In this document: in pieces, positions 1,262 to 40,194 of the stretch
How the letters are laid out: each line of letters begins with the position of its first letter
Numbering within the stretch: position 1 is the stretch's first letter
Assembly (NCBI GenBank): GCA_017499595.2
Contig: CM039009.1
Coordinates: 2,108,001-2,172,000 of the forward strand
Direction: 5' to 3'
DNA from: Psilocybe cubensis
Lineage: Eukaryota
Length of the DNA: 64,000 nt
Notes under the pieces: model-generated
Database searches by the model: none
What the model was told of the DNA's origin: nothing
What the model saw: only the letters and a program-made list of their open reading frames with translations
Program-made: the position numbers and the translations under genes

Positions 1262-4200
1262 TCAGGTTGCCTTGTGCATCAAGGTTGCATTTCTGTCTTC
1301 GTACTCCTGGCAACTTCGGTAGAGATTCTCTGCATCCGCTTTCAATGCCGCTAATTTGACTATTTTTATAAAACATTAGTTGGTCAACGGCAAGACTGTA
1401 ATGTAATTGCTTGAAGCACAAACCTTGCTCAATAAGCTGCGGTTTAAGAACCTTGTTCGTTATCTCTCTTTGAATATCCTCAAATAACTCGGCAAGTGTC
1501 CAATAGCTCGACAGCTGCATGATATCTAGAACATGTTCAATCGGAAGACTTTCAACGTCTGGGTGGGTTCCCTTGTAGATGTAGTCTACTCATTATTAAT
1601 TAGACATAAATGTATCTAAATGGTGACTATAATTTAAAGACATACCTAGAACCGCACGAACACAGTCTGCGGAATAATCCGAAACGTCACACAGAATTGG
1701 TTCTTCAGAGGATGCAGCCTTAGCTTCCTTGAATCCTCCGCAGAAGCGATCGTTGAAGTATTCGCTGCAAACAGCCAAAAAGCTTCTGTGGCCTACTAAA
1801 CGTTCCGCGCTGGGATCACTAAGATCTCCAATGACGAATACGACATCAAACAGCTTGCTATCCTCTCTTAATTTTTGGAACCCCGCGCGAAGCAGTTCCA
1901 ACTTGGAGCTAGAGCTGGCGGGTGTCTGACTCGACGGATATTGTGGATGGAAAACATCCACCGCCCCTGCGGCGCGTAGCAGTTCTTCATACGGAAGGAG
2001 AAATCTACGAACATGCCGAATGTGAGCATCAATATCTTGCTTTTCAAATACCAGCTGCTCAGCGCAGTCCCATATCCATTCGTCTAAATCTTGGTCATTT
2101 ACATTGAGGAATATATGCTGGTGTTGGGTGTCAGGTGGGATGACAGATTGACCCGCTGTTATCACTTGTTCGTTGAGAAACCGGTATGACTCCTTCACAT
2201 CATGTATAACGATGCGGCGCTGTGAGGACGACAAGTTCTCCAAACGAGTTAGAAAATGAATGTGTGCTATCTGAGTTTATATATCAAGAGCATGTATATT
2301 TTCGTCAGCTATTCACCTTAGGTGTGAAAAGCCGGGACTTACAACTTCTGTGACGCTCGGTTGGCCCAGTTTGGGGTACGCCATAATAACTCTCTGGTGA
2401 GGTTGATTGGCAAAGCTTGCCCTTTGGCTCCACGCTACAGACTCGTACTCTTTTCTTACAAGATCAGATGGAGTTACAACTCGCCCCAGTGCGGTCACAT
2501 TTGACGGGAGATTCAAACCAGGGAGTCGGGTGTCCTCGTTAGGAAGCAGGCGACGAGCGGACATGTCTCTCGGAATAAACGCATATTCATCTAGATCATG
2601 CCAAAGATCTTCCCTGTTTGCTGGGACACGCATAGGCAGGATTTCTCCGTACGCTTCGAAAAGAATAGAAGCTCTGTTTGCTTTATCCTCCTCATCCTCT
2701 TCGCTCATAGCGTCGAGAACCTCTGCACATTCAAGAAAGCTTTCAAAGTTGAGGCTGCTCTCAGATTTAAGACCATATTTCTGCAGTGCCTGATCGAGTT
2801 GCTGAAATTCAGGGTGTATAAAACGATCTGAATGAAGACCAAATACCGCCTCAAACAGAGGTTCTCTGGCGTACAATACGTTTGAATCTCGAGTTATAGA
2901 GTTGCAGTTCGGAACTGGGATGACAGTGCTATAAGAAGGGACCAATCGAGGTAGCCATGTTTCCAGAAGTTGTCGGTAAGACTGCAGGTCCTGAGGTGAT
3001 AAAATATCAGGAAGGATTAACATCTCCCTGAGCTGGTCGTAGTCAATACGAGGGCCGTTCAAGAAACGAAGGGCGCCATATTCAGCCACATATACTCTCA
3101 TAAAAGGTCCTGCAATAGTCAAGGGAAGACCCTCTGGTAACATATAAACATCTGAAGCTGTGCACAGTTCCTCTGCTGATCCAGAACGGGCGCCAATCCA
3201 CAGCGGGAGTCTCTGCGCTACTGGTTGGAGCTCTGGAGGTAATTCATGGTCGATACTACGACGAACCCAGTTCGCAAAAGCGTCTTGCACGTCGGGAGGC
3301 ATATCTAATACGATCTCCGTTATGTTACTTTGTAAAGGTCCTGGAAGAGCCTTCAATACATTTTCGAGGTTGAACATCGGATAGCCGTCGTTGCGGAATA
3401 TGTCCATTAGAGAGGGGGGAATGCCATTATCTGATACTCGGACGATGTTTAAACCCAGGCGGGCAAGAAACATCCGTATGAGTTCGTACTGCTCGGTATT
3501 ACCATCCACCAGCAAAGTCGACACGTCTTTACAGCTCGATAAAGAAGCGAACCAATTATTGCGAACAAGTGGTACCAGAGGAAGGTTGGATATGTCATCT
3601 GTGACAAGACCGAGGTGGTTGTACTCGTCCCAAGTTTCCCAGAAGTCGCCGATCCAATCTGAGAGCTCTGGGGAAGCCTCGAAGGGAAATGATAGTGGCA
3701 AAGGGAATTTGGCCGAAATAAACATGCTGAGTGACTCAGTATTAAGAATAGCGACATTAACGTCAATCTTCAATAATACTTCTTTTAGCTTCCTTTTAAG
3801 TTGTGGATGAACAAAGTACTGTTGAGGGAAATTGTGGTGCGTGGATGGCGTTTTCGGCATCCATGCATAGAAATTGAACGAAGCATTACTGCGACTTTGT
3901 AGAGTGCCGAGGGTGCCGCTTTCAAGAGGAAGTATAGGAGCACCATGCATATTTGCCACTCCATCCATTTGGTCGCCAAGAAAATACGCAATGATTTCTT
4001 CAATATCTTGGAAACGGGAGAGACTGGGGGAGAGGATCCCAGAAGACGCGGCTCGTACGATTTCAGCTTTCACAAATTCCGGAGATACAACGGAAAGACT
4101 TGATTTCTTCATCAATTGAAATATACTTTTTGAAGGTTTTGCAACTGTAGCTGGGCGAAGTAAGGATAACAACCTCTCAACGCTGGCCGGTTCTTCCCCA

Positions 4201-7200
4201 GAAAGAACAGCTTCCTGAGGTGTAAGCCGTATTTCTGGATCATATGCGCTGCGTAACACTTGTCGATGAGACTCTTTAAGATGATTTGAGTAAAAGGAGT
4301 CGATAATTAATCGAGAATATGGGTCCTCCGTTTGATGACGAGGCAGTCCTGGCCACCAAGATTTATTGGTGTCGTGTGATAGAAGCAATTTTTGAAGTAA
4401 GCAGAGGTACAATGGTGGGATGACGTTAGAGAGAAGCCATGTGTTGAACTTATTCTCTAGTACATCAAGCCGTATGCTTCGCCTATCGGGGGATAATAGA
4501 AAAGAAGCCATTACATGCGCTGGGAGTGATGTTTGAAGACTTAGAGGTAGAGTCGAAAAAAACCTGTGAGGCTGTGGACTATGAGAAGTTGCGTTTCTTA
4601 AAACTGCAAGACCTGCCAAAGCAGGCAGTCTTGGTCTACTTGTAGATAAGATGGGTGTGAGGATATCATGGGGTATACTTGACTTTGCCACAGACGTCTT
4701 GACGGTTTGCCAAGTTGAAGTACTGCCCTCACTGTCAGTGATGTTAACTTGGGCGCAGGAGAATCCAGTATCCGGTTCAACTTCTTCCTCGCTACGATGG
4801 GCAGAAACAGACCATGACTCTTCTAAATCCCCCATAGCGTTGCGGTTGAGCTTGGTGATAGTATCAATTCCGGTAAAAAGTAAACACTCGCTTGCCGAGC
4901 AGCCATCAATTGCTGAGCGTCTAAAGTCTTGTAGGATGTGGTTGATATCCTCGGCTGTGTAAGTGCGTTGAGATATGGCCTTGGTTTCAATTCCTTTCAA
5001 GTGTCGACTATTACGAAGGGGAAGGATAAATATGGTCTACAATCTGAATTTAGAATGATTCCTCACTATTACATACGGAAAAGAGACATACCCCTTGGAA
5101 TGATCCTTCGTTCGCGATTCCGAAACCGAATAAACCATCCACGCAAGCAAGATGACTGGGATAATACCTGTGCTTACGGTCATCATGCTGAATAAAAAGT
5201 ACATAAAATGACCCTTACTCCCGAACACGCTTGAGAGGTAGCATTAATGATGCCTGATCACGGATAGGTAGGTGTTCTTTCGAAGGGTTCAAAAACAATA
5301 CACTCGAGTTTGATACAACGATGGCCATCTGAAATATTGTGAAATAGTATACAGGGATTACTGTAAAATACGTACCTCGGTGAAATGGAACATCGTAAGT
5401 GCCCCAAGTCCAAATTGACCTATTGTATCTCCCTTCCCTTCCTTGCCTCCGATCCCTGTTCGCCGGATACCAATAAAATCAGAATCTGTGAATACTGAGT
5501 TGTTATACACCACCAAAGTAGGTGAGGTACAAAACGGAATCATCGAATCTGAGAGTGCCCGGATGTTCTCATCTAGAATGGGGTGGTAATAATTGACAAG
5601 CAGTGAGAATTGAGTAGCACCAGCGTCAACTGCGTTTGCGAGGAATTCTGTGGCAAACTGTTTATCTTTATACTGCTCTAGATTGTTGCGCACAGTAGTG
5701 ACTAGATGTTGACCCATGTCGACGTATGAATCACTGAAGTCGACGTATTTCAAACCTAACCGATTCAATCCCAGTTTCCTCGCTAATGGCTCCTCCAAAA
5801 GTTCATGAGCAATGCGGTCATCACCAGAGGACACAAGATTGGCATGACTACCAATGTCATTGAAATAAAGTTCCTCAATCGGGAGTAACTGGCATGAAGC
5901 GTCAGGGACGAGGATTTGAGCACGCTCAGCGTCCGTGAAGTCAGATTTCAATGATCGTAGCATGTTAAGAGACATGCTGAGGTTATGCAAAGAGGGGGGC
6001 TCTTCTCGAAGGGCCTTTAGATTAGCGATAATGGCTTCGGTAGTGGGACTACGGGAAACCACATTTTAATTTAAATTTTTTGGAAGGTTTTAAAGGAACA
6101 TGTACCTTTCCTGGCAGCCCATCAGCTCCAAAAATTCTCGCATCTTTTTGTCCAGAGAAAGCACTTGATAGAAGCCCGATTCTGGAATGGAGACAACAAA
6201 TACGGCGTTTTGCGTTTCCACAAGATGACTATCAGTGGTTGGTACCCACTTTCGCCCGGAAGTTACCCTTTTCAACTCAGCAAAGTCTGTTGGGTTGCAG
6301 GAGCGAGTGCTGAGCTCTTTGACGATATCATGAACTTTCATAAAGTTGCCATCTTCCTCCGTTAGGACTCGTTCGAGCTGGTTGATTAGAACCTCTCTTG
6401 AAAGGGGGGCGTCCCATCCTAGAGCGTGAATCAACGACGATGGAATTTTGAACGAGTCCATGGTATCCAAAACTCGATCAAAGAGATTAGGATTGGTTAG
6501 ATTCCCATCCCTGCATTCTGCATAACCGCGCAATCCTTTATCGGTTGGTAGCCATTTTTGTTTGGGATTAAGTCGAAGTCCCGAGCAATCAAAGCGGGAG
6601 CTGATAATGAGATTCAGCAACGCCCTCGAGACTTCGATGGCACCTGGGGATAATGAACTAGAAATATGCTCGATACGTTCCTGTACTATTTCTGTGGTTA
6701 AGGCCGAGCGCAGCATGCGCAAATCTTGCAACAGACTGACGATCTTCTTCTCTGAGTCTGAGACCGCACGCGCTTGGAATGACGGACTGGATACGTAAAG
6801 CGCGTGTAATTTTGATTTCGGGTCCACCACATCGACGGCTTTCTGCTGCGAGCCGTCCATCACAGTGACAAACTTGATGTCGCGTAATGTTTGAAAAACT
6901 ATGGGGGGAACATGGTTACGATATCGATTGAGGTAGGACAAGGTGGCCACCTTCACATGGTCCGGCTGAGAAGTAAAGTGTTTGATCGTCAAAGAAAGGA
7001 CGTCAATAACTGACAATCGTTTCGACGTATCCGGCTCAAGATAGTCCAAAAGATTTGAAATACTTGTGTCAAGCTGAATAAATGCTACCCCTTCTACTAT
7101 TGGCAAGAAAGGCGGATTGTCGACTGCTCTCAAAGATACTTCATGTGGTATTTGATCCCAGGTAACAACAATACCTGCAGAGTTCAAAGGTGGGAAGGTG

Positions 7201-21794: not shown

Positions 21795-23482
21795 ATGTTT
21801 TTCCCTCTAATTTCACTTGTTTCCTGTCTCGTCGCTCATGTCGCAGCGGTACCAACGCCTTCGTCCAATGTAGGGCACGATCATTCGCATAACGTTCGAC
21901 GAGCGCTCCCAGGCACTTGGTATCACGATGAAGACCATCCTGCACACAGCTTATTTAAACGCGCGCCGGGTGATGGTTCGACATATGCGACTGTGGGTAC
22001 TCCAGGTGCGAGAAGACTACTCAGTATACAAATACTCTTATTAATTCGTCAATAATTCGCGTCTTTCAGCCTGGTCAGCTGGATTCCCCCAGAGCTCCCC
22101 GGACCCGAATGCACTTCCAGCAGAATGGGTCAACGCTCTTAACGCCGCTGTGTCGGCTGGAAAAATTCCAAACATTCCACAGTCCTCGAATACCCCCGGG
22201 ACGAACCCAGTTTACCCAACGGGGTTCAATCCTAATGGTCCTGAAATTTGTTCCGCAACTGCAAAATGTCGAATTCCTGGCGATATTTGGGACGCGCCCG
22301 ATGGTCTTTTTGCAAGTTCTTTCGACGATGGACCTACGCCTGTTTGTTTTGCATTTATTCTGAACGTGCTTTTATCCTGAAACTTCACAATAGTCCACTC
22401 CTACCCTTGTCAATTTCCTGGGCTCAGTCAACCAGACCACAACGCACTTCATGATCGGTATCAATTTTCTGTATTACCCCAACCAGTTTTTGGCGGCTTT
22501 CAACGCGGGCCATGATATTGCGGTGCACACATGGACTCATCCATATATGACCACTCTCAGCAACCTGCAAATAGTTGGACAGGTGCGTCCGTGTTTAATA
22601 TTAACAATACTTTGTATACTTAACACGTTCTTATTAAACTAGCTCGGGTGGACAATGCAGATGATACATAACTCGACGGGTGGTCGTGTTCCAAAGTACT
22701 GGAGGCCACCATATGGCGATTCGGATGCGAGAGTGACCGCTATTGCTAAGGAGGTTTGTCATGTTATGAATTTGTTTTGGACATTGATTTACCTTACCGC
22801 TGTAATAGGTATTCGGCTTACAGACTATAATTTGGAATCACGAGTAAGTTTCAAAGCGTTCAGTTTGCACGAAGAAGGGCTAAAAATTATCTCATTAGCA
22901 CTGAAGATTGGAATAATGGAACGCCGCAGACAATTGGGGTCTCCATGACGGGCTTCTTAGCGTGTCAGTCTCATCACTAATTTACAATCAGTGTATAGTT
23001 GACTGACTAAGTTTGTAGCGCCGAAGAGTCCAGGTCTCATCATCCTGGAGCACGAGTTGACAGATAACACAGTCAATGGATTCATTGGAGCGTATCCTCA
23101 AATCCAGTCAACTGGGTGGAAATTCTCTTCTCTTGTTAAAGCCATAGGAGATGGGCGCACGTATCGAAATGCTCAGAATTCCCTCTCGAATGATGTTCAA
23201 CCAGATGGAATTCTAATCTCACCACCTTCCAATGTGACGACTTCGTCGTCGTCGTCGTCCTCATCTTCTTCTTCATCGTCGTCATCTTCGGGGTCATCTT
23301 CGTCATCAACAACGTCGTCTTCATCTAGCTCTACGACTTCCAGCGCGTCATCTGCCTCTAACCATGACAGTGGTTCAGACACTAAGTCATCATCAGCGCT
23401 CTCCGCCACATTTGTTCCCATCTCTACCCACATCACACTATTAATTCTATGTTTGACCAGCGCCCTCATTGTTGGATCATGA
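21795..23482 (+). CDS. Chitin deacetylase (CE4/NodB), secreted, Ser-rich stalk, probable GPI anchor
   Basis: Signal peptide; [22 protein letters not shown] and LEHE motifs; poly-Ser linker (TCG/TCT/TCA repeats about 23240-23345); hydrophobic C-terminal tail. Confidence 0.92.
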
Positions 23483-23982
23483 CAGTTCGGTGATGACACG
23501 ATAGACACATTTGTGTTTGCCTGTTGCCGTCGATTTGCTTTATGATCTCACGGACTTGTTGTTTGTATATACTCATCCAACGGACTTGTTGCTTTCTTAG
23601 GAGTCTCTCGTTATCTACTCACGGACCATCTACTACTATTGGAATTTTAGAACAGAAACTTGGGACACACCATTCGTTATCCTCCTTCAAACAACTTACA
23701 TCTTCCTACGTAAATATATTAGCTCCTCTTTTTTACTCTAACCGGATTAATAGTTTTCGGTATGACTATATCACGATTTGCAATGCCATATCCTTTGTAC
23801 CTTTTGGAATTGAAATAGTTGGTTCTGGGCTGCCTGTCCAGCCGTGGTCTCGACTTGCTACGGTCAAAAATTCACAAGTGGATGATAATTGATCCATGAC
23901 TTTGGAAAAAGTACAGAATCACTGATTTAAACAGTAGTCCGAGTTCAAAAGGTTTACTGTATATCCACAAGTATATGCGATG

Positions 23983-26900
23983 CTAGTGAGCTTCACCTAT
24001 CATCATGTCATCATCTTGTCCTGGCAGTAATTTCTCTGGAAATACGATGTTGGCCGAAAGCTCCTCTTCACTGCATTCATATCGAATAACGTGTAGATAT
24101 TCCCTCAATTGGCCAATTTCTGGTCGGGCAGCTGGTTCCTTTGTCCAACATGAGAGAATGAGATTCCACAATTCGTCTGATAGAAGGGCTTCCGGTGGTC
24201 TCGCAGGTGTTCTACCTTTCATCACCTCCATGAGGACCTGCACGTCGAGTAGAATGTTCTCATACGGGATCCTTCCAGTTATTGTCTACCGCATAAATAT
24301 CAAATCTGGCATTGCTTGTCAGCCATTATGTGCGCAAGGACGCACCTGAAGCATGACGCCGCCGAGCGAATATATATCGCAATACTTGGTGACATCCGGG
24401 ACAGCAAGGCCAAAGTGCAACAGCTCGGGCGCTGCCCATCTCGGAGACCCGCCAACGGTAGAACTGATGAACGAGTTGTGTCGCACTTCGGCCATAGCGT
24501 TCGACAGGCCAAAGTCACTTAAATGTGCCCTGTCTTCGTCCATCAGTATGTTCCCCTGCGGGCATGATGCCAATGGATGGCGCTTAGAGTTGTGCGGTAA
24601 GAATACGTTGGAAAATGATTCGACCTACGGTTGTTAAATCGCCATGAATGACGGACTGCGAATGCACTTGACGTCTTTGGTCAATCAAGATGTTGTTATC
24701 TGAACTTTGAAAGCCAATTCCTTACAATAGGCTAGGCCCTCTATGACATCTGCCAACTTGAGAATTGTGAATGTCGGTAAGCAAGTAATCGAAAAAAGGC
24801 AGATTGTACGCACAATTTGCAACCGTTTTCGCAAGGTCAGCTCAAGAACCTTTTTGTTGAGATATTGGCTCAGGTTTCCATGTTCCATCCACGGGCAGAC
24901 CATCGCTAGGTAGGGTCCAAAGCCGGTGGTAGTCCCCAGCAATGGAACTACGTTAGGATGTCGCAACAAGGCCCATAGCCGGATCTCTCTTCTCAATCTC
25001 TAAAGCAGTTGATCGAATTGATTACCATTAAATTTTGTGATTAGCTCCCAATAGGAAAGGACAATAGTACCTTGTCTATCTTCCATTGATTCGAAGCAGT
25101 GTATGTATGAGACCGAATTACTTTGATTGCAACCTATCATAACCATCAGGGGAACCTTGTTCTCTGTATATAGAAAATATTCGAACCTTGATGCTCCTCC
25201 CTTTTCTCGTTAGCTTGCCTATATATACATCTGCGTAGCCGCCCCCATTCGACGGATATTCACTGTCTCGCTTTACGAGCCCCGTCAGATCCTCCGTTTT
25301 TGCATTAAAGAAAGTATTTGAGAAAGAAGTTTGTGCAGGGCCCGGCATTCGCGAGCGATGGATATGCTCAGGTACGGCCCATTTCGTTTCTACTCCAGTG
25401 GTTGCGCTGGTAGTCCATGTCGCTACGTTGTCCTCTTTCTCTGAGATATGATATACAGCAGCGCTGGTTTCGACGGGGGGCATTTGAGAATTTTGCAATA
25501 CGTCCGAAAGACCATGTAATGAGAGTCCAGTATTTTGATCAAGACTGAATTCAAGCTCTTCTGGGTCTACAGTTTTTAGCATCATCTGATTTTTGGGCCG
25601 CGGCGCAAAAAGTTTAGATTTAAGCACCGCTAAAGCGTCTAAAAATCGCTGCCCATTCTATAGCATAAAAACAAATTTGACGCCGTTCAAATGCTTGCAC
25701 ATATAGTCATAAAATGAAAGGCGCACCAGAGCAAGATTATGACGTTGTTGCTGGTTCATAGTAGTGTAATACTGGCGATGCCCTGGAATTTCTTCAAGGA
25801 CAAGCTTTGCTGCTTGGGCATACCGTACGAATGCGGATTCCAAGTCGCCGTTTGACGCGCTTTCCTCTGCATCTGCTTCCAATTGTCGTACAATTCCTAG
25901 ATAGCGCTTTAAGGACATGTTATGATCCCATTCGGAATCAGAAACCCTCTTTAAGAGGCTTTCCAACGACGATGGTTCGTTGTATGTCGCATTGGAATTA
26001 TAAGCGGGCATTCGTAATTCATATTGTTGTCCCAAGGCATCCTGGGAGGTGACAGTAGGAGTACGAGGTATCATCTCGGTGGTCATGTCTGAAGGAACAC
26101 GACGGCTACGGTTGCCGCCTCAAACATGGTCTAACTTTCTTGCAGATCGTCGAATCTGAGTCCGTTTTTGTTAATCGGGGTCCCTTCCTCGTGGCATAAC
26201 TCTCCGTTACCTTTGTGACACCTTTTATAGCTTTACAATCTCCGACACTGTACATGTTCTGCCGACCGCCGAGGCTATGAACAATCTAGTGCCATTACCG
26301 AAGTGTTACTGGCTGCTGGCACATGAGCCTGAGCAAAATTGAAGTTGAAGTTAGAGTACCAGAATTATTCTATCAGTTTAATATGTAGAGCTAAGTTTGT
26401 ATTATATGCATTATGGGAGGTCAGAGTAGACGATTCAAACGCAGAGGTGATTCTCCTCATCAGAAGCGTGGGAAGACGCAGAATCGCCTCTTGCTGACTC
26501 GCCTCTGAATCGTTGAAGCGGCTCCGGACGCGCTTCAACGATTCTGCATCTATGAATACAATAAATTACAATTTCCAATTAAAAGAAGCCACTGGGCTGT
26601 TAGTACGGCTGTGTTTTGCCATATTGGATAACGAGTCTGCTTTTCAGTTGCAGAGGTTACAAGTGAATTGACAAATTAGTAGTCCTGGCTCATGCTGCTA
26701 AGGCGTAATCGACACTCACTTCCGTTTGTTAAGACTCAAAATTAAATATTCCGTGTACGAGTCGAAGGTTTCCTCTTTTTCATCGTTCAACAACATGTCA
26801 AGGTTTCAATGTTTTTATTCGTTTTTTTTCGTTGCCTCAGCGGTTCGAACCTGACAATAGAAATGGAAACAAACCCCCAAGTTTATCAGAACACGAGGCA

Positions 26901-27749
26901 GAAACAAGCAAAAACTTAAATTGAAGGGTGATCGGGTTTCCATGTTGCTTGTATCCTATGTCCAATTTCTGAGTCACATTCACACTTTCTGGTAAAGCAC
27001 CGTTTTATAATGTGAAAAATGACATTTCTCATAGTCCAATTTATGAGCAATATATAATACAACCTAATTAACCTACTCGTAAGCTGTGTAGAATAAGGGC
27101 CAAATTTTACAGCATAGGAATACGCTGGAAGACAGCGTTGTACACCACCGACTTAAACAAACACACAAAATGCTCCATCTAAACGGGGACATGGTGGCAT
27201 GCCTGTCTCAAGGTTGGAGGGTATATGTAGCCGACGGCAAGGGGGGTGTAATACATGGTGACTTGAGGGTGTTGTACAGCATGATAAGAAATTGTACTCA
27301 CCTGCTTTGGCCTGTATGTCAACCTGTTAGTGAACGAGGAGGTGGTGTGAGGGCATTTCGGAGAAGGGCCTCCAGCCGCTCACAGAGTGGTTGAAACTCC
27401 GACTCCCCCCGAGCCGGCCAACCACAGTCACACACTAGAGGGCCTGAACAGCAGTTCTACCTGACGTGACAAACAGGAAAGTAACGCAGTGCCAGGACCC
27501 CCACCCACCGCTTCTTGATAGCGGAACAGTTGCCTTATGTAGACCATGTTTGAGGCGGCAACCGTAGACGGCGGTCGATTGGAATTCTGTAATTTCCACG
27601 AAAGAGTGATATGGTATACCTGACATTGAAGGTTGCAATTTAGGATATAACCTTGGCGGGTCCGGCATCTCTGGTGCGTGCAGTTCCAGTGTTGACGTGC
27701 TAGGGTACGTGCGTAGCACATTTGACGAGTGTGATCCTTGTCGTAGCAT
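23983..27749 (-). CDS. TKL-like protein kinase with an N-terminal USP8-dimerisation (MIT-like, AMSH/Doa4-type) domain; intron 1 carries a transposon
   Basis: Kinase motifs GGGYADVY, VAIK, REIRLW, HPNV, IHGDLTTGNIL, DFGLS, PRWAAPE, DIYSLG, CW...RP. N-terminal LKRYL...GDLESAFVRYAQAAKLVLEEIPGHRQY...HNLAL|NGQ. Exon 27749-27620 (130 nt) splices in frame to the acceptor at 26089 (G|AC ATG). An alternative start at ATG 26086 is possible. Confidence 0.82.
26107..26133 (+). repeat. Left terminal inverted repeat TACGGTTGCCGCCTCAAACATGGTCTA
   Basis: Exact reverse complement of 27540-27566. Confidence 0.95.
26430..26544. repeat. Cluster of nested inverted repeats inside the transposon
   Basis: Perfect 14-bp stem GAATCGTTGAAGCG (26507-26520) / CGCTTCAACGATTC (26531-26544); also GCAGAGGTGATTCT / AGAATCGCCTCTTGC and ACGATTCA / TGAATCGT. 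Confidence 0.8.
27540..27566 (-). repeat. Right terminal inverted repeat
   Basis: TAGACCATGTTTGAGGCGGCAACCGTA, followed by GACGGC. Confidence 0.95.
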
Positions 27750-28387
27750 AGGTGCTCAAAACATTGAGGAGAATAGCAATTGGTGATGATGGTGAAGCAA
27801 AAGATGCGCAGTACAGGATGTTCATTTAATCGACAGCACACATCCTGTTGTGGCCTGTGCCTTGTCCCGTTGGCGCCGGTATCTATCGTTTACACGTCAA
27901 GTTTGAGACTCAGAGTCTGCCAGGCAGTACCAGCTCTGCCGACGGCGCGGCAGTTGCAATTGTCGTGTCGGACACGCAGCTCAGATCGACACAAACTGTT
28001 CCGTGGCATTACGCAAAGTTGAATTCAATCAACGCTGGACAGAATCCTGATCTATAGTATAATCCAAAGGGCGTAACTGTACGCAACGCTAGGTATTTTT
28101 CCACAACATAAAGTACGAACAGTAAAATGTTCAACAAAAAAAGGAAATGAGCCAAAAAAGAGCGGGTATATATACTAGAGAAAAGAGCATCAAAATGAGG
28201 GAAATTACGTGGTGGCCCACTTGGGGAGAAAACGCGTCGAACGTTGGCGGAGTGTGATTTTCATGCAATCGTCAAAAATGTCAAGAAAAAGAGAAAGCCC
28301 CAATGGCGAATGAGGTGCGACAAGAGAGGATATAAGCTGAACGAGAGTTGCGACAGAGATGCGCGCTTCAAGTCAGTTATATCGCGT

Positions 28388-29915
28388 TCATCGTCTGTTG
28401 GTGCCGCTGCGGCCGTATCCAACTTGGAGGTTCTCCAACTCAGCCTCGAGTTGCTTGATAGCGCTGTGCGCCATCTCGAGATCCTTGTTCAAGCGATCAC
28501 GCTCGGCAATCAACTGTAAAAAGATAATAGTCAATACTCAAATAAAAAAGCAGCTTCATAACGTCGACGTACATGCTGCTCCCATTGCCTGAATCTCGCT
28601 TCCTCAGCCTTGACCTGTTCGGTGAACTTCTTCCTCAGCTGTTCTTCCTCCTCCTTGAACTTGGGGTTGTCAGGCTTCCTGATCTTGGCCTCTCCGAATT
28701 TGCGAGTCTCCATCTGTGCCTGCCTGTAGTTCTCGTAGTGGAGCTCTTCCGACGTTGAAATCAAATCCAACATGTGTGTTCGGATGAGGAGGGAGCGCAA
28801 TTTCTTGAAGTCGCAGTGGTCCTCATTCTCAACTAAATTTTGGGTATGGTATTAGACTAAAGATATCTGAATTAGCGAAGGAATCAACACAAACCTTCGG
28901 CAACACCCCAAATATATTCACGACCCTTGACGACACGGCCATCAGGAGTCCTGACGTCTTCAGTCGAACCAATGATGGAGAAAGGAATGGCATCAATCAA
29001 GACACGGGCGTGGTCTGCGTTCTCGTCGTCGGATTCGATAGGTGGCGTGTAAATGCGGATGCCTTGCGCAGAAATCACTTCGCGAACCTAAACGTACAAG
29101 ATAGGCGGAAGGGCGGGGACAGAAAAAATGGTAAATGAAACTATAGCAAAAATGATCAGTGATGTTGCCACGTACCCGTTGCTTGAAGGTATGGAGGTCG
29201 TTTTGGGTGAGGGTGTCGGCTTTGGCGATGACTGGAATCAAATTGACGCGGGTTCCAAGGCGCTTCATGATTTCGATATCCAGAGGCTTCAAGCTGTAAC
29301 CATTTCAGTAACTACGGACAATGTTGGAAATAAAGTGCACATACGTGTGGCCGGTGGGGCGAATGAAGTAGAGGCAAGCGTGCACACGAAGGTCAGTCTT
29401 CTCGTGTCTCTGCGGCTGCTGCTCCTGACGCATGTACGCTTCATGTTGGTCGTCAATGAATTCGACAATAGGGAGCCAGGAGTCACGGTTGTTAACATAG
29501 TCTCCGAATCCAGGGGTATCGATGACGGTTAGCTTGACTTTGAACTGACGCTCCTCAAGCTCAGCCTTGATGATTTCAACTTCGGTCAGTTTGTCGAGCT
29601 GCTTGAAGTGACGTTTGCTGTAGTTTTTAGGGGGTGACAGCTCAGTCGAGAAGAGGGTGTTGATCAACGTGGTCTTTCCCAAACCAGACTCGCCTATTGA
29701 CACTCATTAGACAGTCGAATCTAAAGCTGTGGGCATGGTCAACTCACCGACAACCATAATGGTGAAGTGGGCACCACGTTTTGCGACAATCTTATGCCTC
29801 TGTCACAGTTCCGACGCGTCAGTCGCTGTGCGTCTGTGTACCAAAACTTTACAAGTACCTGGTTGGGCAGGTTGGCAATGCCAATACCGTCAAAAGAGGG
29901 TGTAGGGAGGGCCAT
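28388..29915 (-). CDS. CDC12: Septin, Cdc12/AspC/Spn4 group
   Basis: [71 protein letters not shown]-terminal coiled coil [23 protein letters not shown]...LNKDLE. Confidence 0.9.
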
Positions 29916-35137: not shown

Positions 35138-37652
<2,515 letters not shown>

Positions 37653-38246: not shown

Positions 38247-40194
38247 ATGAGCTTTTTTGGGTTTGATTACTTAAACTTTTCTCCGAAGAGGTCGTCCACT
38301 TCAAAAAGCCATGATACCTCTTCCAGCAGTTGTAAGTTCAAATGCTGATACATTGCCACTCAGTAGATCTTACAACATATAGCATCTAGCTCCAACAGGC
38401 GAGCTCTCGATTAATTGTCACATTCCATCAGTCAGTTAACAATGAGTTCCTTCTTTAAAGTTCTGCAGAGTCAGACTTGTTACGCCAGAACGAGGAGCTG
38501 AAGACAATGCTGGCTGAGTTAGCGGCGGAGAATGCTCGATTGAAGCTGCAGACCACAAAGTTATTAGATGAGACCACCGAACCCGTTCAAACTACTATCG
38601 TGACGCCCGCACAAGCTGCCAGCCCGTCATTCACCACCCTCAACCGACAAGCTCCCATCATGCCCAAAAAAGATGTCTTTAGATGGGCGAAGCTTTCAGA
38701 TCTGGGAGCTCTGCAGGAAGAAGATTCCACAGACGACCTGGTTTCTGGCGATGCAAGCGACTCCGACGACAGCATTGCCGATGCACTTGAAGCGATGAAC
38801 AAACTATTAGTGCTGGATGGACAGGATTCGCCAATTGAGGAAAATGGGAATGGTTTATCTTTCCCAGACTCAGCAGAATCCTCATTTTCAGCTTCGTTAC
38901 TGAGCGGCGTAACAACGGAGGACCTTACTGGCTTTGTCGTCAAGGATAGTGAATATCCCGCGCACGGTGGAGGATATGCCGATGTATATACTGGCACTCT
39001 GTCAAAAGAAGGAAAGAAAACCAAGGTGAGAATCAATTACTTATGACGTGCAGGCCACCACGCACAACTTTTTAACTGCTTTTGAGGTGGCTATAAAAGT
39101 GATCCGGGCACATACGTATACGCCGAGCAATCAATGGAAGATAGAAAAGGTTCTCTTTCCCCCGTCATCATTTTCGTCCTTCCCAGCTCATACTTATCTC
39201 ATTTGATAACAGAGGCTGCGACGCGAAATACGTCTGTGGTCGTGCTTGCATCATCCAAACGTTGTACCGCTGCTGGGAACTACTATGAGTTTCGGCTCTC
39301 ATACTTCTATGGTCTGCCCCTGGATGAACGAAGGAAGCTTGCACCATTATCTTACTGACAGGAAATCCGAGTTAAACCTTAGGAGGCGTTTGCAAATTGT
39401 AAGTATTCAAAAGATTACATCGTTCAAACTATTTAAAAATAACGTAACGCGAAGCTGTCAGACGTTGTAGAAGGCTTATCATATTGTGTGGATCATTTCT
39501 TGATGAATTTCCTGTTGCTCGAGTTAATGAATCACTTGTACAGTGCATTCACAGCCAGTCATTCACGGCGATCTCACAACGGTTCGTACCCTTTTCTCAA
39601 CGTTTTAAGCATTCTCTGATTACAGGTTTGAGTAGGGTAACATACTGATGGACGGCGGGAAGGCACATCTAAGCGACTTCGGCCTATCAAATGTCATGGC
39701 AGAAGCCCGAATCAATTCGTTCTTAAGCTCCACAGTTGGAGGGGCCCCGAGGTGGACAGCACCTGAACTCCTTCACGTAGGTACGGACCCTATTGCCCCT
39801 GCAGATATGACCAAAAAATGCGATATATATTCGTTTGGGAGTGTTGCGCTGCAAGTCAGTCCTTCAAATTTTTATTCTGAGAACGACTTGCAGAACTTTT
39901 TTGCAGGTTATATCCGGAAGGATACCCTACGAGGATATCGTTTCTGAGGTCCAGGTCATCATGCAGCTTATAAAAGGTATCAATCCTCCAAGGCCTGCTG
40001 AGCCACTTCTTTCAGACGCATTCTGGGAGTTTATTGTTCTATGCTGGAGTCGAGACCCGTTTAAACGACCTGAAATCGACCAAGTCAGAGAGAAGCTCCA
40101 ACTATTACGCTACAGCTGCACCGAGGAGACATTGGCTTCCAATATTGTCGATTGTGATAAACAGCCAGAACAGGAAACCAATGACAATGAATAA
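38247..40194 (+). CDS. TKL-like protein kinase, paralog of the 23983-27749 kinase, with a coiled-coil/acidic N-terminus
   Basis: TEDLTGFVVKDSEYPAHGGGYADVY, VAIK, LRREIRLW, IHGDLTTGNIL, DFGLS, PRWTAPE, DIYSFG. Start inferred at ATG 38247 via a 16-nt exon (38383-38398) and a GC-AG intron (38399-38460) that keep the frame. Confidence 0.85.

Follow-up and report, generated by a model that had tools for sequence, protein, structure and literature searches.

In human ULK3, tandem MIT domains are located C-terminal to the kinase. PMC9477494 names three human proteins that have both MIT and kinase domains, ULK3, RPS6KC1 and RPS6KL1, and PMC4475061 describes binding and phosphorylation of ESCRT-III by ULK3 through its MIT domains. 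The MIT domain of AMSH binds 10 of 12 human ESCRT-III proteins, as stated in PMC9477494. Among the FslK kinases counted in PMC3937382, only 16 of 241 members carry an extra domain.

The Psilocybe cubensis gene described here is located in a 64-kb window (the whole stretch of DNA that was analysed) and, like ULK3, RPS6KC1 and RPS6KL1, combines an MIT domain and a protein kinase in one polypeptide. An earlier reading of this DNA, made from the sequence only, had regarded such a domain as not a usual kinase partner; this statement is too strong in view of the three animal precedents (PMC9477494). The fusion is not homologous to that of ULK3, since the P. cubensis protein has a single N-terminal AMSH-type MIT domain and a non-ULK kinase, so that any resemblance would be functional only and ULK3 serves here as a working model. 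With AMSH/STAMBP the gene shares a homologous N-terminal domain, whereas a kinase stands in the place of JAB/MPN+ (no JAB domain is matched by Pfam in the 553-aa protein). With the soluble TKL/FslK kinases of Agaricomycetes it shares the PK_Tyr_Ser-Thr domain, the CW(x)6RP motif and an agaric host, and it is without a signal peptide or extracellular domain (in comparison with the descriptions in bioRxiv 10.1101/349894 and PMC3937382). It differs from most FslK members, which have no extra domain, in its MIT head and in the catalytic loop HGDLTTGN.

The gene occupies 26086..23983 on the minus strand and was modelled by hand as eight exons coding for 553 aa, with seven introns of 53–73 nt each, all of the GT..AG type. 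The model is identical to the public P. cubensis protein P0169 (UniRef100_A0A8H8CFQ8, n=2), and all of the peptides quoted in the sequence-only reading are present in the minus-strand translation. The 100% match to P. cubensis proteins also bears out the Agaricomycete context assumed in that reading. Exon 1 (25727..26086, residues 1–120) begins with the ATG at 26086 and encodes a disordered N-terminus followed by USP8_dimer/MIT-like helices. Its C-terminal end, ...QRHNLAL, is followed by intron 1 (25658..25726; 69 nt, phase 0, GTGCGC..TATAG), which contains an in-frame stop; with this intron removed, exon 1 is joined in frame to NGQRFLDAL, the start of exon 2, as had been claimed. Exon 2 (25187..25657, residues 121–277) is a single open reading frame comprising the last MIT helix (121–136), the linker and the kinase glycine loop GGGYADVY. 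The lower limit of 25118 set previously corresponds to the end of the raw open reading frame and has to be replaced by the true exon 2 donor at 25187/25186; the whole feature covers 23983..26086, as the gene runs on to the stop codon at 23985–23983.

The remaining exons, also on the minus strand, encode the rest of the kinase. Exon 3 (25071..25133, 21 aa) provides the VAIK lysine and is the same exon in the public model P0156, exon 4 (24814..24999, 62 aa) covers the region from the alpha-C glutamate through the hinge, and exon 5 (24726..24756, 31 nt) likewise matches P0156. The catalytic loop HGDLTT is encoded by exon 6 (24629..24666, 38 nt), GNILMD, DFG and APE by exon 7 (24346..24555), and the CW(x)6RP motif by exon 8 (23983..24285). 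Fusion at the DNA level is independent of splicing, the conserved MIT helix that comes last (NGQRFLDAL..LKSKL) lying in one open reading frame, that of exon 2, with the glycine loop of the kinase. At the DNA level the locus is very probably one fused coding unit, and its product is probably, with less assurance, translated as an MIT–kinase fusion.

Both domains expected on the spliced protein, USP8_dimer and PK_Tyr_Ser-Thr, are matched by Pfam. Exon 1 alone gives USP8_dimer (PF08969, gathering cut-off 24.6 bits) with 36.8 bits and E 5.1e-9 over profile positions 10–81 of 114; in the 553-aa protein the match extends to residues 39–136 (25610..25972, minus strand, a span that includes intron 1), profile positions 10–107 of 114, with 38.3 bits and E 1.6e-9. 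A family profile finds the human STAMBP MIT structures 2xze and 9le4 (E 1.7e-10). The AF2 model, calculated for exon 1 only and leaving out the last helix, which belongs to exon 2, contains helices at residues 41–49, 59–78, 82–102 and 112–119, with pLDDT 82–96 over residues 41–120. In Foldseek, ranks 1–6 are all STAMBP MIT chains (probability 1.00, TM 0.53–0.54, rmsd 2.5–2.7 Å over 78 columns, E only 0.02–0.1), followed, among further hits, by MIT domains of VPS4, USP8, NRBF2 and MITD1. The three methods agree on an AMSH/USP8-type MIT-like domain, the identity proposed from the sequence.

The head is strongly diverged: no relative is more than 45% identical to it, and its branch length in the domain tree is 1.33 against a median of 0.43. 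Conserved columns were defined by conservation of 85% or more among 24 spliced relatives; 24 of these 33 columns are kept, with neither stop nor frameshift over 137 codons, and the nine altered ones include two charge reversals, R70E and K99E. Relatives align past the exon 1/2 junction up to residues 136–137, and homology to AMSH ends there, at about residue 137: the end of the domain is incomplete, the fungal RYExW stretch being missing (W143 = N) and the Pfam match stopping at profile position 107. The columns kept and the uninterrupted frame, in a domain so diverged, fit protein-level constraint over a long time and not decay.

Intron 1 provides evidence on the origin of the head. The codon aligned to residue 120 is directly followed by GT in 69 of the 70 related metagenome loci, which bears out the suggestion that this intron position is common with AMSH-type genes; in 40 of the 70, an exon starting NGQ/HGQ..L..L.LK follows after an AG, 46–228 nt downstream. 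A JAB domain is encoded downstream in 42 of the 70 loci, in 35 of the 36 whose downstream sequence extends for 2,600 nt or more, and it is present in 15 of 36 long library matches. The conserved GT, the NGQ exon and the downstream JAB domain together indicate that intron 1 was inherited from AMSH-type genes, in which the same phase-0 intron after ...NL.L precedes the same next helix, NGQ..L..L.LK. The intron position points to an AMSH gene whose 5' end was captured at the DNA level. In such a scenario, the 5' end of a STAMBP-like (MIT + JAB) AMSH gene would have been duplicated as genomic DNA, the captured piece consisting of exon 1, the phase-0 intron and the first 16–17 codons of the next exon. 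This piece could then have been joined in frame, within an exon, to the N-terminal linker of a TKL/FslK-like kinase of the family expanded in Agaricomycetes. The linker of the present protein (residues 137–258, about 120 aa; 25244..25609, minus strand) matches no Pfam family.

Public annotations at the P. cubensis locus contradict each other, which is of practical importance. A second annotation divides it into P0168 (142 aa), which is exon 1 read on into intron 1, and P0156 (375 aa), which corresponds to residues 179–553 of the 553-aa model and starts at the internal ATG of Met179 (25481..25483, minus strand). Separate genes for the two parts, which would speak against the fusion proposed earlier, are therefore modelled in one annotation, while the other public entry is the 553-aa fusion itself. 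The split models would correspond to a locus of two units, in which the kinase is translated from Met179, exon 1 is either a small gene ending in a retained intron or a silent remnant left by partial duplication of AMSH, and the frame between the two stays open by coincidence. Only 58 codons separate the start of exon 2 from Met179, and by a rough estimate from base composition such a stretch would stay open by chance in about 5% of cases.

The upstream flank could also be accommodated by two units. A repeat element of 1,462 bp with terminal inverted repeats (26106..27567), flanked by ACGG on both sides, is located 20 bp upstream of the ATG and may have severed an upstream promoter. Its inverted arms (26100–26133 and 27540–27573) are 94% complementary, and its 25-nt ends match exactly (chance expectation 0). 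In DNA runs X2 and X3, depth over the element is 105–130 versus 21–25 in the flanks, and contigs are broken at both ends; the element is multi-copy and must divide the gene from its original promoter, which also counts against the fused reading.

Several observations nevertheless make two units unlikely. Given an intron inherited from AMSH-type genes, with its donor position conserved in nearly all of the relatives, the 142-aa read-through model removes a conserved helix whose in-frame coding sequence lies directly beyond the intron. The head shows constraint and not decay, judged by the retained columns, the uninterrupted frame and the low identity to any relative given above. The split annotation carries low weight, because the same annotation set mis-models the neighbouring paralogue, where P0157 omits a VAIK micro-exon that P0170 and the DNA both contain. 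RNA-like contigs from sequencing runs X1 and X5 favour neither reading: they contain spliced joints in a septin gene, a sugar transporter and the paralogous kinase; positions 24277–26007 have no RNA contig coverage in these two runs, and in run X1 some depth is seen in the 23700–24276 bin.

The kinase domain is matched by PK_Tyr_Ser-Thr at residues 259–517 (E 1.3e-43). The glycine loop GGGYADVY, VAIKV, the alpha-C glutamate (RREIRLW), the aspartate of HGD, the asparagine of GN, DFG, APE and CW(x)6RP are all kept. The catalytic-loop lysine is replaced by threonine (HGDLTTGN compared with HKDLKPEN in RIPK1), which may weaken catalysis. The same change occurs in the neighbouring paralogue (P0157/P0170) and in P0158 of P. 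cyanescens, and P0137 of Hypsizygus marmoreus has HGDLKGAN. The best matches in the PDB are RIPK1, CTR1 and B-Raf, and the 60 best matches to solved kinases include no ULK kinase. Together with the Pfam match, this agrees with the TKL-like kinase that had been read in frame with the head; EGFR, Src-Abl, ITK and Eph give similar scores, so the assignment would be to TKL-like kinases in a sense that does not distinguish TKL from FslK.

The preferred reading, that of one gene in which an AMSH-captured MIT head, an unstructured linker and a soluble TKL-like Ser/Thr kinase form an ESCRT-directed protein, is given a probability of about 45%. The head would dock on ESCRT-III subunits through their MIM-type C-terminal tails, or else on a different MIM-like helix, and this docking would recruit the kinase to ESCRT assemblies at endosomes or septa. 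The recruited kinase could then phosphorylate ESCRT-III or neighbouring proteins, which would make the P. cubensis protein a counterpart of human ULK3 that was assembled independently in fungi. The direction towards ESCRT as such is proposed tentatively, by analogy; no ESCRT-III gene lies within the 64-kb window. Should the fused protein be produced and interact with ESCRT-III, it would represent the first fungal kinase with a direct connection to the ESCRT machinery, the ULK3 principle would have been re-invented independently, and a concrete function would be available for at least one member of the functionally blank TKL-like expansion in mushroom-forming fungi.

RIPK1, CTR1 and B-Raf are regulated by dimerisation. 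The head could act mainly as a module for self-association or scaffolding, with the TKL-like kinase activated through induced proximity; alternatively, loss of the catalytic-loop lysine could have left a pseudokinase scaffold. Both are improbable. Self-association is suggested by the name of the Pfam family (USP8 dimerisation domain) and by the dimerisation-regulated kinases that are nearest among solved structures, but the closest structural relatives of the head are AMSH MIT domains, solved with an ESCRT-III tail according to the title of 2xze. In a two-copy complex prediction for residues 31–140 the score was 0.00 (mark 0.32), the prediction returning no answer. A pseudokinase would agree with the HGDLTTGN loop common to the P. 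cubensis gene and its two Psilocybe relatives, whereas all remaining catalytic motifs are intact.

The combination of USP8_dimer with a kinase is rare. It is found in two of the 36 long library matches and in none of the 70 metagenome loci, and altogether in three species, P. cubensis, Hypsizygus marmoreus and Ceratobasidium sp. The proteins of the latter two, RDB18377.1 (P0137, 'STY8', 773 aa) and KAG8770065.1 (P0119, 711 aa), respectively, likewise have an N-terminal USP8_dimer and a C-terminal kinase. Their kinases are only 34–38% identical to that of P. cubensis and their linkers are unrelated and much longer; the Ceratobasidium protein has two head repeats, versus one head in P. cubensis, and a truncated kinase model. 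Word-index searches gave no match among longer proteins for P0001 and only the self-match for residues 1–460 of P0137, and an Atlas search with P0137 returned kinase-only clusters, PF08969 being absent among the matches listed. The 553-aa form is grouped in a cluster whose representative is the 375-aa kinase-only model; cluster representatives can therefore hide fusions, and architecture counts from such libraries are lower bounds. No paper on a fusion of an AMSH-type MIT domain with a kinase was found in a literature search. The fusion is thus rare and uncharacterised, as the sequence-only reading had supposed, with human MIT-plus-kinase precedents; the fused 553-aa protein is already a public entry, listed as uncharacterised.

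All three kinase-linked heads are on long branches (1.33, 2.04 and 2.58 against the median of 0.43) of a domain tree that is poorly resolved, with 64 of 139 inner branches open and long-branch warnings. Grouping of the three heads is not rejected by the AU test (p 0.993), and the tree constrained to hold them together is 82.6 log-likelihood units better than a quick free search; from these sequences, one common origin is neither shown nor excluded. It could be speculated, at low probability, that mushroom-forming fungi repeatedly or anciently wired AMSH MIT copies onto their expanded TKL-like kinases. Such kinases would be directed at ESCRT-III, converging on metazoan ULK3, for example in timing septal or endosomal scission in multicellular development; or the MIT copies would be baits guarding ESCRT, the fast-evolving heads with two charge reversals marking a re-tuned MIM code.

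To our knowledge, no fungal pathogen factor targeting the AMSH MIT domain has been described. An integrated decoy or sensor, analogous to plant kinase-fusion immune proteins, in which the MIT copy is a bait for a mycovirus or parasite effector aimed at host ESCRT/AMSH and binding activates the kinase, would agree with the sporadic distribution over the three species seen, the long branches, the surface charge reversed at two conserved positions and a kinase from a family described as lineage-expanded (bioRxiv 10.1101/349894; PMC3937382), but it is regarded as improbable. Nothing speaks directly against it; the long branches fit relaxed constraint or a new partner equally well, and no clustering with other immune-type genes was seen in the window.

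The nearest relatives of the kinase, with 60–62% identity, are without the MIT domain. The exon 2 search matched three proteins, of which the sole one from outside P. cubensis (P0158 of P. cyanescens) has a different N-terminus; a close orthologue with the same MIT head was not found in this search. Shugoshin as the head of the neighbouring paralogue was ruled out for the window, Pfam being blank on the open reading frame at 38459–39043. The paralogous kinase itself is located 12 kb away and is 60–62% identical, and its similarity to the fused protein begins only at about residue 215, inside the linker.

The fused gene, assembled by hand from six-frame ORFs and the sequence, comprises 8 exons on the minus strand and spans 23983-26086: exon 1 (26086-25727), exon 2 (25657-25187), exon 3 (25133-25071), exon 4 (24999-24814), exon 5 (24756-24726), exon 6 (24666-24629), exon 7 (24555-24346) and exon 8 (24285-23983). 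All seven introns are GT..AG, of 53-73 nt, and the CDS of 1,662 nt encodes 553 aa. Exon 1 ends in ...QRHNLAL followed by GTGCGC; intron 1 (69 nt) contains an in-frame stop, and exon 2 begins with NGQRFLDAL. Every peptide quoted in the sequence-only reading was found in the minus-strand translation or in this model, which is identical letter for letter to the public protein P0169 (UniRef100_A0A8H8CFQ8, n=2, Psilocybe cubensis, 553 aa). In Pfam, exon 1 alone matches USP8_dimer (PF08969; E 5.1e-9, 36.8 bits, cut-off 24.6), and the later exons match PK_Tyr_Ser-Thr and Pkinase. P0169 carries USP8_dimer at 39-136 (profile 10-107 of 114, E 1.6e-9) and PK_Tyr_Ser-Thr at 259-517 (E 1.3e-43), which confirms the observed in-frame fusion of an MIT-like head to a kinase.

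Public annotations of the locus conflict. In one, the locus codes for the fused 553-aa protein; in the other it is divided into P0168 (142 aa), which is exon 1 continued into intron 1 up to the intron's stop, and P0156 (375 aa), a kinase starting at Met179, an internal ATG in exon 2. Two separate transcription units could be read from this split annotation and from a multi-copy non-coding element (26106-27567, 1,462 bp) located 20 bp upstream of the ATG. However, no splice is needed for the fusion: the 157 codons of exon 2 form one open frame, which opens on the head's last conserved helix and closes on the kinase glycine loop GGGYADVY. The alignment of relatives crosses the exon 1/2 junction and reaches residue 136-137; therefore P0168 loses a conserved helix encoded in frame straight after the intron. 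The head has no stop or frameshift over 137 codons. Among 24 properly spliced relatives, 33 columns reach 85% conservation or more, and the head retains 24 of these. Its identity to any relative is at most 45%, and its terminal branch in the domain tree is 1.33 (median 0.43). This pattern suggests that the head is under constraint and not in decay. The split annotation carries little weight, since it also mis-models the neighbouring paralogue: its model P0157 lacks a 21-residue VAIK micro-exon present in the DNA and in the second public model, P0170. The fused model is favoured over the split one on four lines of evidence: the open frame of exon 2, the alignment across the junction, the constrained head and the inherited intron position described below. 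The MIT-kinase architecture at the DNA level and the AMSH origin of the head are solid; at the expression level the fusion is predicted, and no contig of the RNA runs X1 and X5 covers 24277-26007.

The head was aligned with 27 short relatives, mostly exon-level ORFs. In most of them similarity is lost directly past NL.L, where apparent intron sequence beginning with V (GTN) follows. Seventy related loci were taken from metagenome contigs by a peptide pattern; since the window's own sequence falls outside this pattern, the scan is biased to conserved AMSH genes. GT stands directly after the codon aligned to residue 120 in 69 of the 70 loci, the alignment of the remaining one having ended at residue 116. 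An exon starting with NGQ or HGQ..L..L.LK lies 46-228 nt further in 40 loci, with AG before it in all 40. JAB, the metalloprotease domain of AMSH/STAMBP genes, is found downstream on the same strand in 42/70 loci, including 35 of the 36 whose sequence extends 2,600 nt or more downstream; a kinase downstream of the head exon is found in none of the 70. The downstream JAB and the intron/exon pattern identify these loci as AMSH-type genes having intron 1 in common with the fused kinase gene, and the shared intron position supposed from the sequence alone is thereby upheld. Such an inherited position also speaks against two transcription units. L058 is the sole one of those 36 loci to lack JAB past the head exon; its downstream ORFs have no obvious identity.

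A profile of the fungal head family matches the MIT structures of human STAMBP (AMSH) 2xze and 9le4 (E 1.7e-10). The AF2 model of exon 1 (pLDDT 82-96) is confident from residue 41. Its top six Foldseek matches are STAMBP chains (probability 1.00, TM 0.53-0.54, rmsd 2.5-2.7 Å over 78 columns) with E-values of only 0.02-0.1; MIT domains of VPS4, USP8, NRBF2, MITD1 and spartin occur at lower ranks, mixed with unrelated matches. On profile and model, the head is an AMSH-type MIT domain. The copy is incomplete: similarity ends at approximately residue 137, ahead of the family's RYExW stretch, and nine conserved columns are changed, R70E and K99E among them.

Among solved structures the kinase comes closest to RIPK1, CTR1 and B-Raf; the scores of tyrosine kinases are nearly as good. 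This fits the TKL/FslK-like kinases, reported as expanded in Agaricomycetes (bioRxiv 10.1101/349894; PMC3937382). The catalytic motifs are complete except for the catalytic-loop lysine (HGDLTTGN versus HKDLKPEN in RIPK1). This lysine is replaced by threonine (HGDLTTGN) in all three Psilocybe kinases of this subfamily (window 24629-24666, window 39636 onward, and P0158 of P. cyanescens); the fused kinase of Hypsizygus retains HGDLKGAN.

The paralogous TKL-like kinase gene (~38247-40194, plus strand) lies 12 kb from the fused gene, and the two kinase domains are 60-62% identical. Similarity starts only at residue ~215 of the fused protein, within exon 2, and the paralogue's N-terminus is unrelated to the head, so the AMSH-derived segment comprises exon 1, the intron and 16-17 codons of the following exon. 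This segment is joined to the kinase linker inside an exon (exon 2). Retention of the intron in the copy indicates duplication of genomic DNA, not retroposition, nor classical exon shuffling on the 3' side. RNA contigs from runs X1 and X5 cover the paralogue, and their joint from 38331 to 38459 holds 14 extra letters. These letters are taken to be a micro-exon at ~38384-38399, whose donor may be GC; on this reading the protein starts at the ATG near 38247, upstream of both P0157 and P0170. P0158 (879 aa), the orthologue of the paralogue, is labelled 'LOW QUALITY' and has fused Shugoshin_N and Shugoshin_C regions. Since the N-terminus of the P. cubensis paralogue has no Pfam match, Shugoshin included, the Shugoshin-kinase fusion is probably a merged gene model.

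Exhaustive phmmer with exon 1 against 1.84 billion representatives gave 203 matches at E <=1e-3. Among the best 150 of these, all 36 matches of at least 281 aa were scanned with Pfam, the 114 shorter ones being too short for both domains. JAB was found in 15 of the 36 and a kinase in two: Hypsizygus marmoreus RDB18377.1 (773 aa) and Ceratobasidium sp. KAG8770065.1 (711 aa, a shortened kinase model), both with USP8_dimer. The other 19 have neither; among them are proteins with tandem heads from Gymnopilus and Agrocybe, and two low-complexity matches that are spurious. These counts are lower bounds, because fused proteins can hide behind cluster representatives, as does the window's own, whose cluster is represented by a kinase-only model. 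The Hypsizygus and Ceratobasidium kinases are 34-38% identical to that of the window. In the domain tree the window's head pairs with that of Hypsizygus, a grouping that carries a long-branch warning, and a single clade of all three kinase-linked heads is not rejected by the AU test (p 0.993). Either a single ancient fusion whose head was later replaced or several independent MIT-kinase fusions may lie behind these sequences. The AMSH head is also duplicated in several Agaricales contexts other than kinases: two tandem USP8_dimer heads with no JAB or kinase occur in P0002 (Gymnopilus dilepis), P0003/P0154 (Agrocybe pediades) and metagenome loci L028 (second head exon ~4019-4345) and L029.

The MIT domain of AMSH binds the tails of 10 of 12 human ESCRT-III subunits (PMC9477494), and 2xze is by its title an AMSH-CHMP3 complex. 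MIT-domain kinases are known as a kind: three human MIT proteins have kinase domains, ULK3, RPS6KC1 and RPS6KL1 (PMC9477494), and ULK3 binds and phosphorylates ESCRT-III via its MIT domains (PMC4475061). The head would dock the TKL-like kinase onto ESCRT-III or a MIM-like helix, and on the most economical reading the fused protein could be a fungal analogue of such ULK3-type kinases. Like ULK3 it pairs MIT with a kinase, but kinase group, MIT subtype and domain order all differ, which places it outside the ULK3 family. Nor is it an AMSH, since its homologous MIT head comes without JAB. Alternatively, the head could serve for dimerisation or as a scaffold, with catalysis perhaps weakened, or could be an integrated decoy. 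A literature search including the kinome found no paper on a fungal USP8_dimer/MIT-kinase protein. PMC3937382 reports extra domains in 16 of 241 FslK kinases and lists them in its Table S3, where the combination may already be tabulated. The fused protein itself is already an uncharacterised database entry.

The upstream element has inverted arms of 34 nt, 94% complementary, with the terminal 25 nt exact, and is flanked by ACGG at both ends. DNA-run depth is 105-130 over it and 21-25 in the flanks (~5x), contigs break at each end, and related copies are seen in RNA contigs. Its single ORF (27428-27889) gives no match in Pfam. The element resembles a non-autonomous DNA transposon that inserted next to the kinase gene, and must displace the original promoter of the fused gene's ATG. 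Among other neighbours, a septin gene (28162-29860, minus strand) has six RNA-supported introns and is the most deeply covered in both RNA runs; nine RNA joints fall in a sugar-transporter gene (35255-37450, plus strand), one of them with odd ends CA..AA at 36457/36528. An ORF at 23003-23482 (plus strand), whose 3' end faces that of the fused kinase gene, has no Pfam match; with its run of ~40 serine/threonine residues and hydrophobic C-terminus, it may encode a small secreted or GPI-anchored wall protein.
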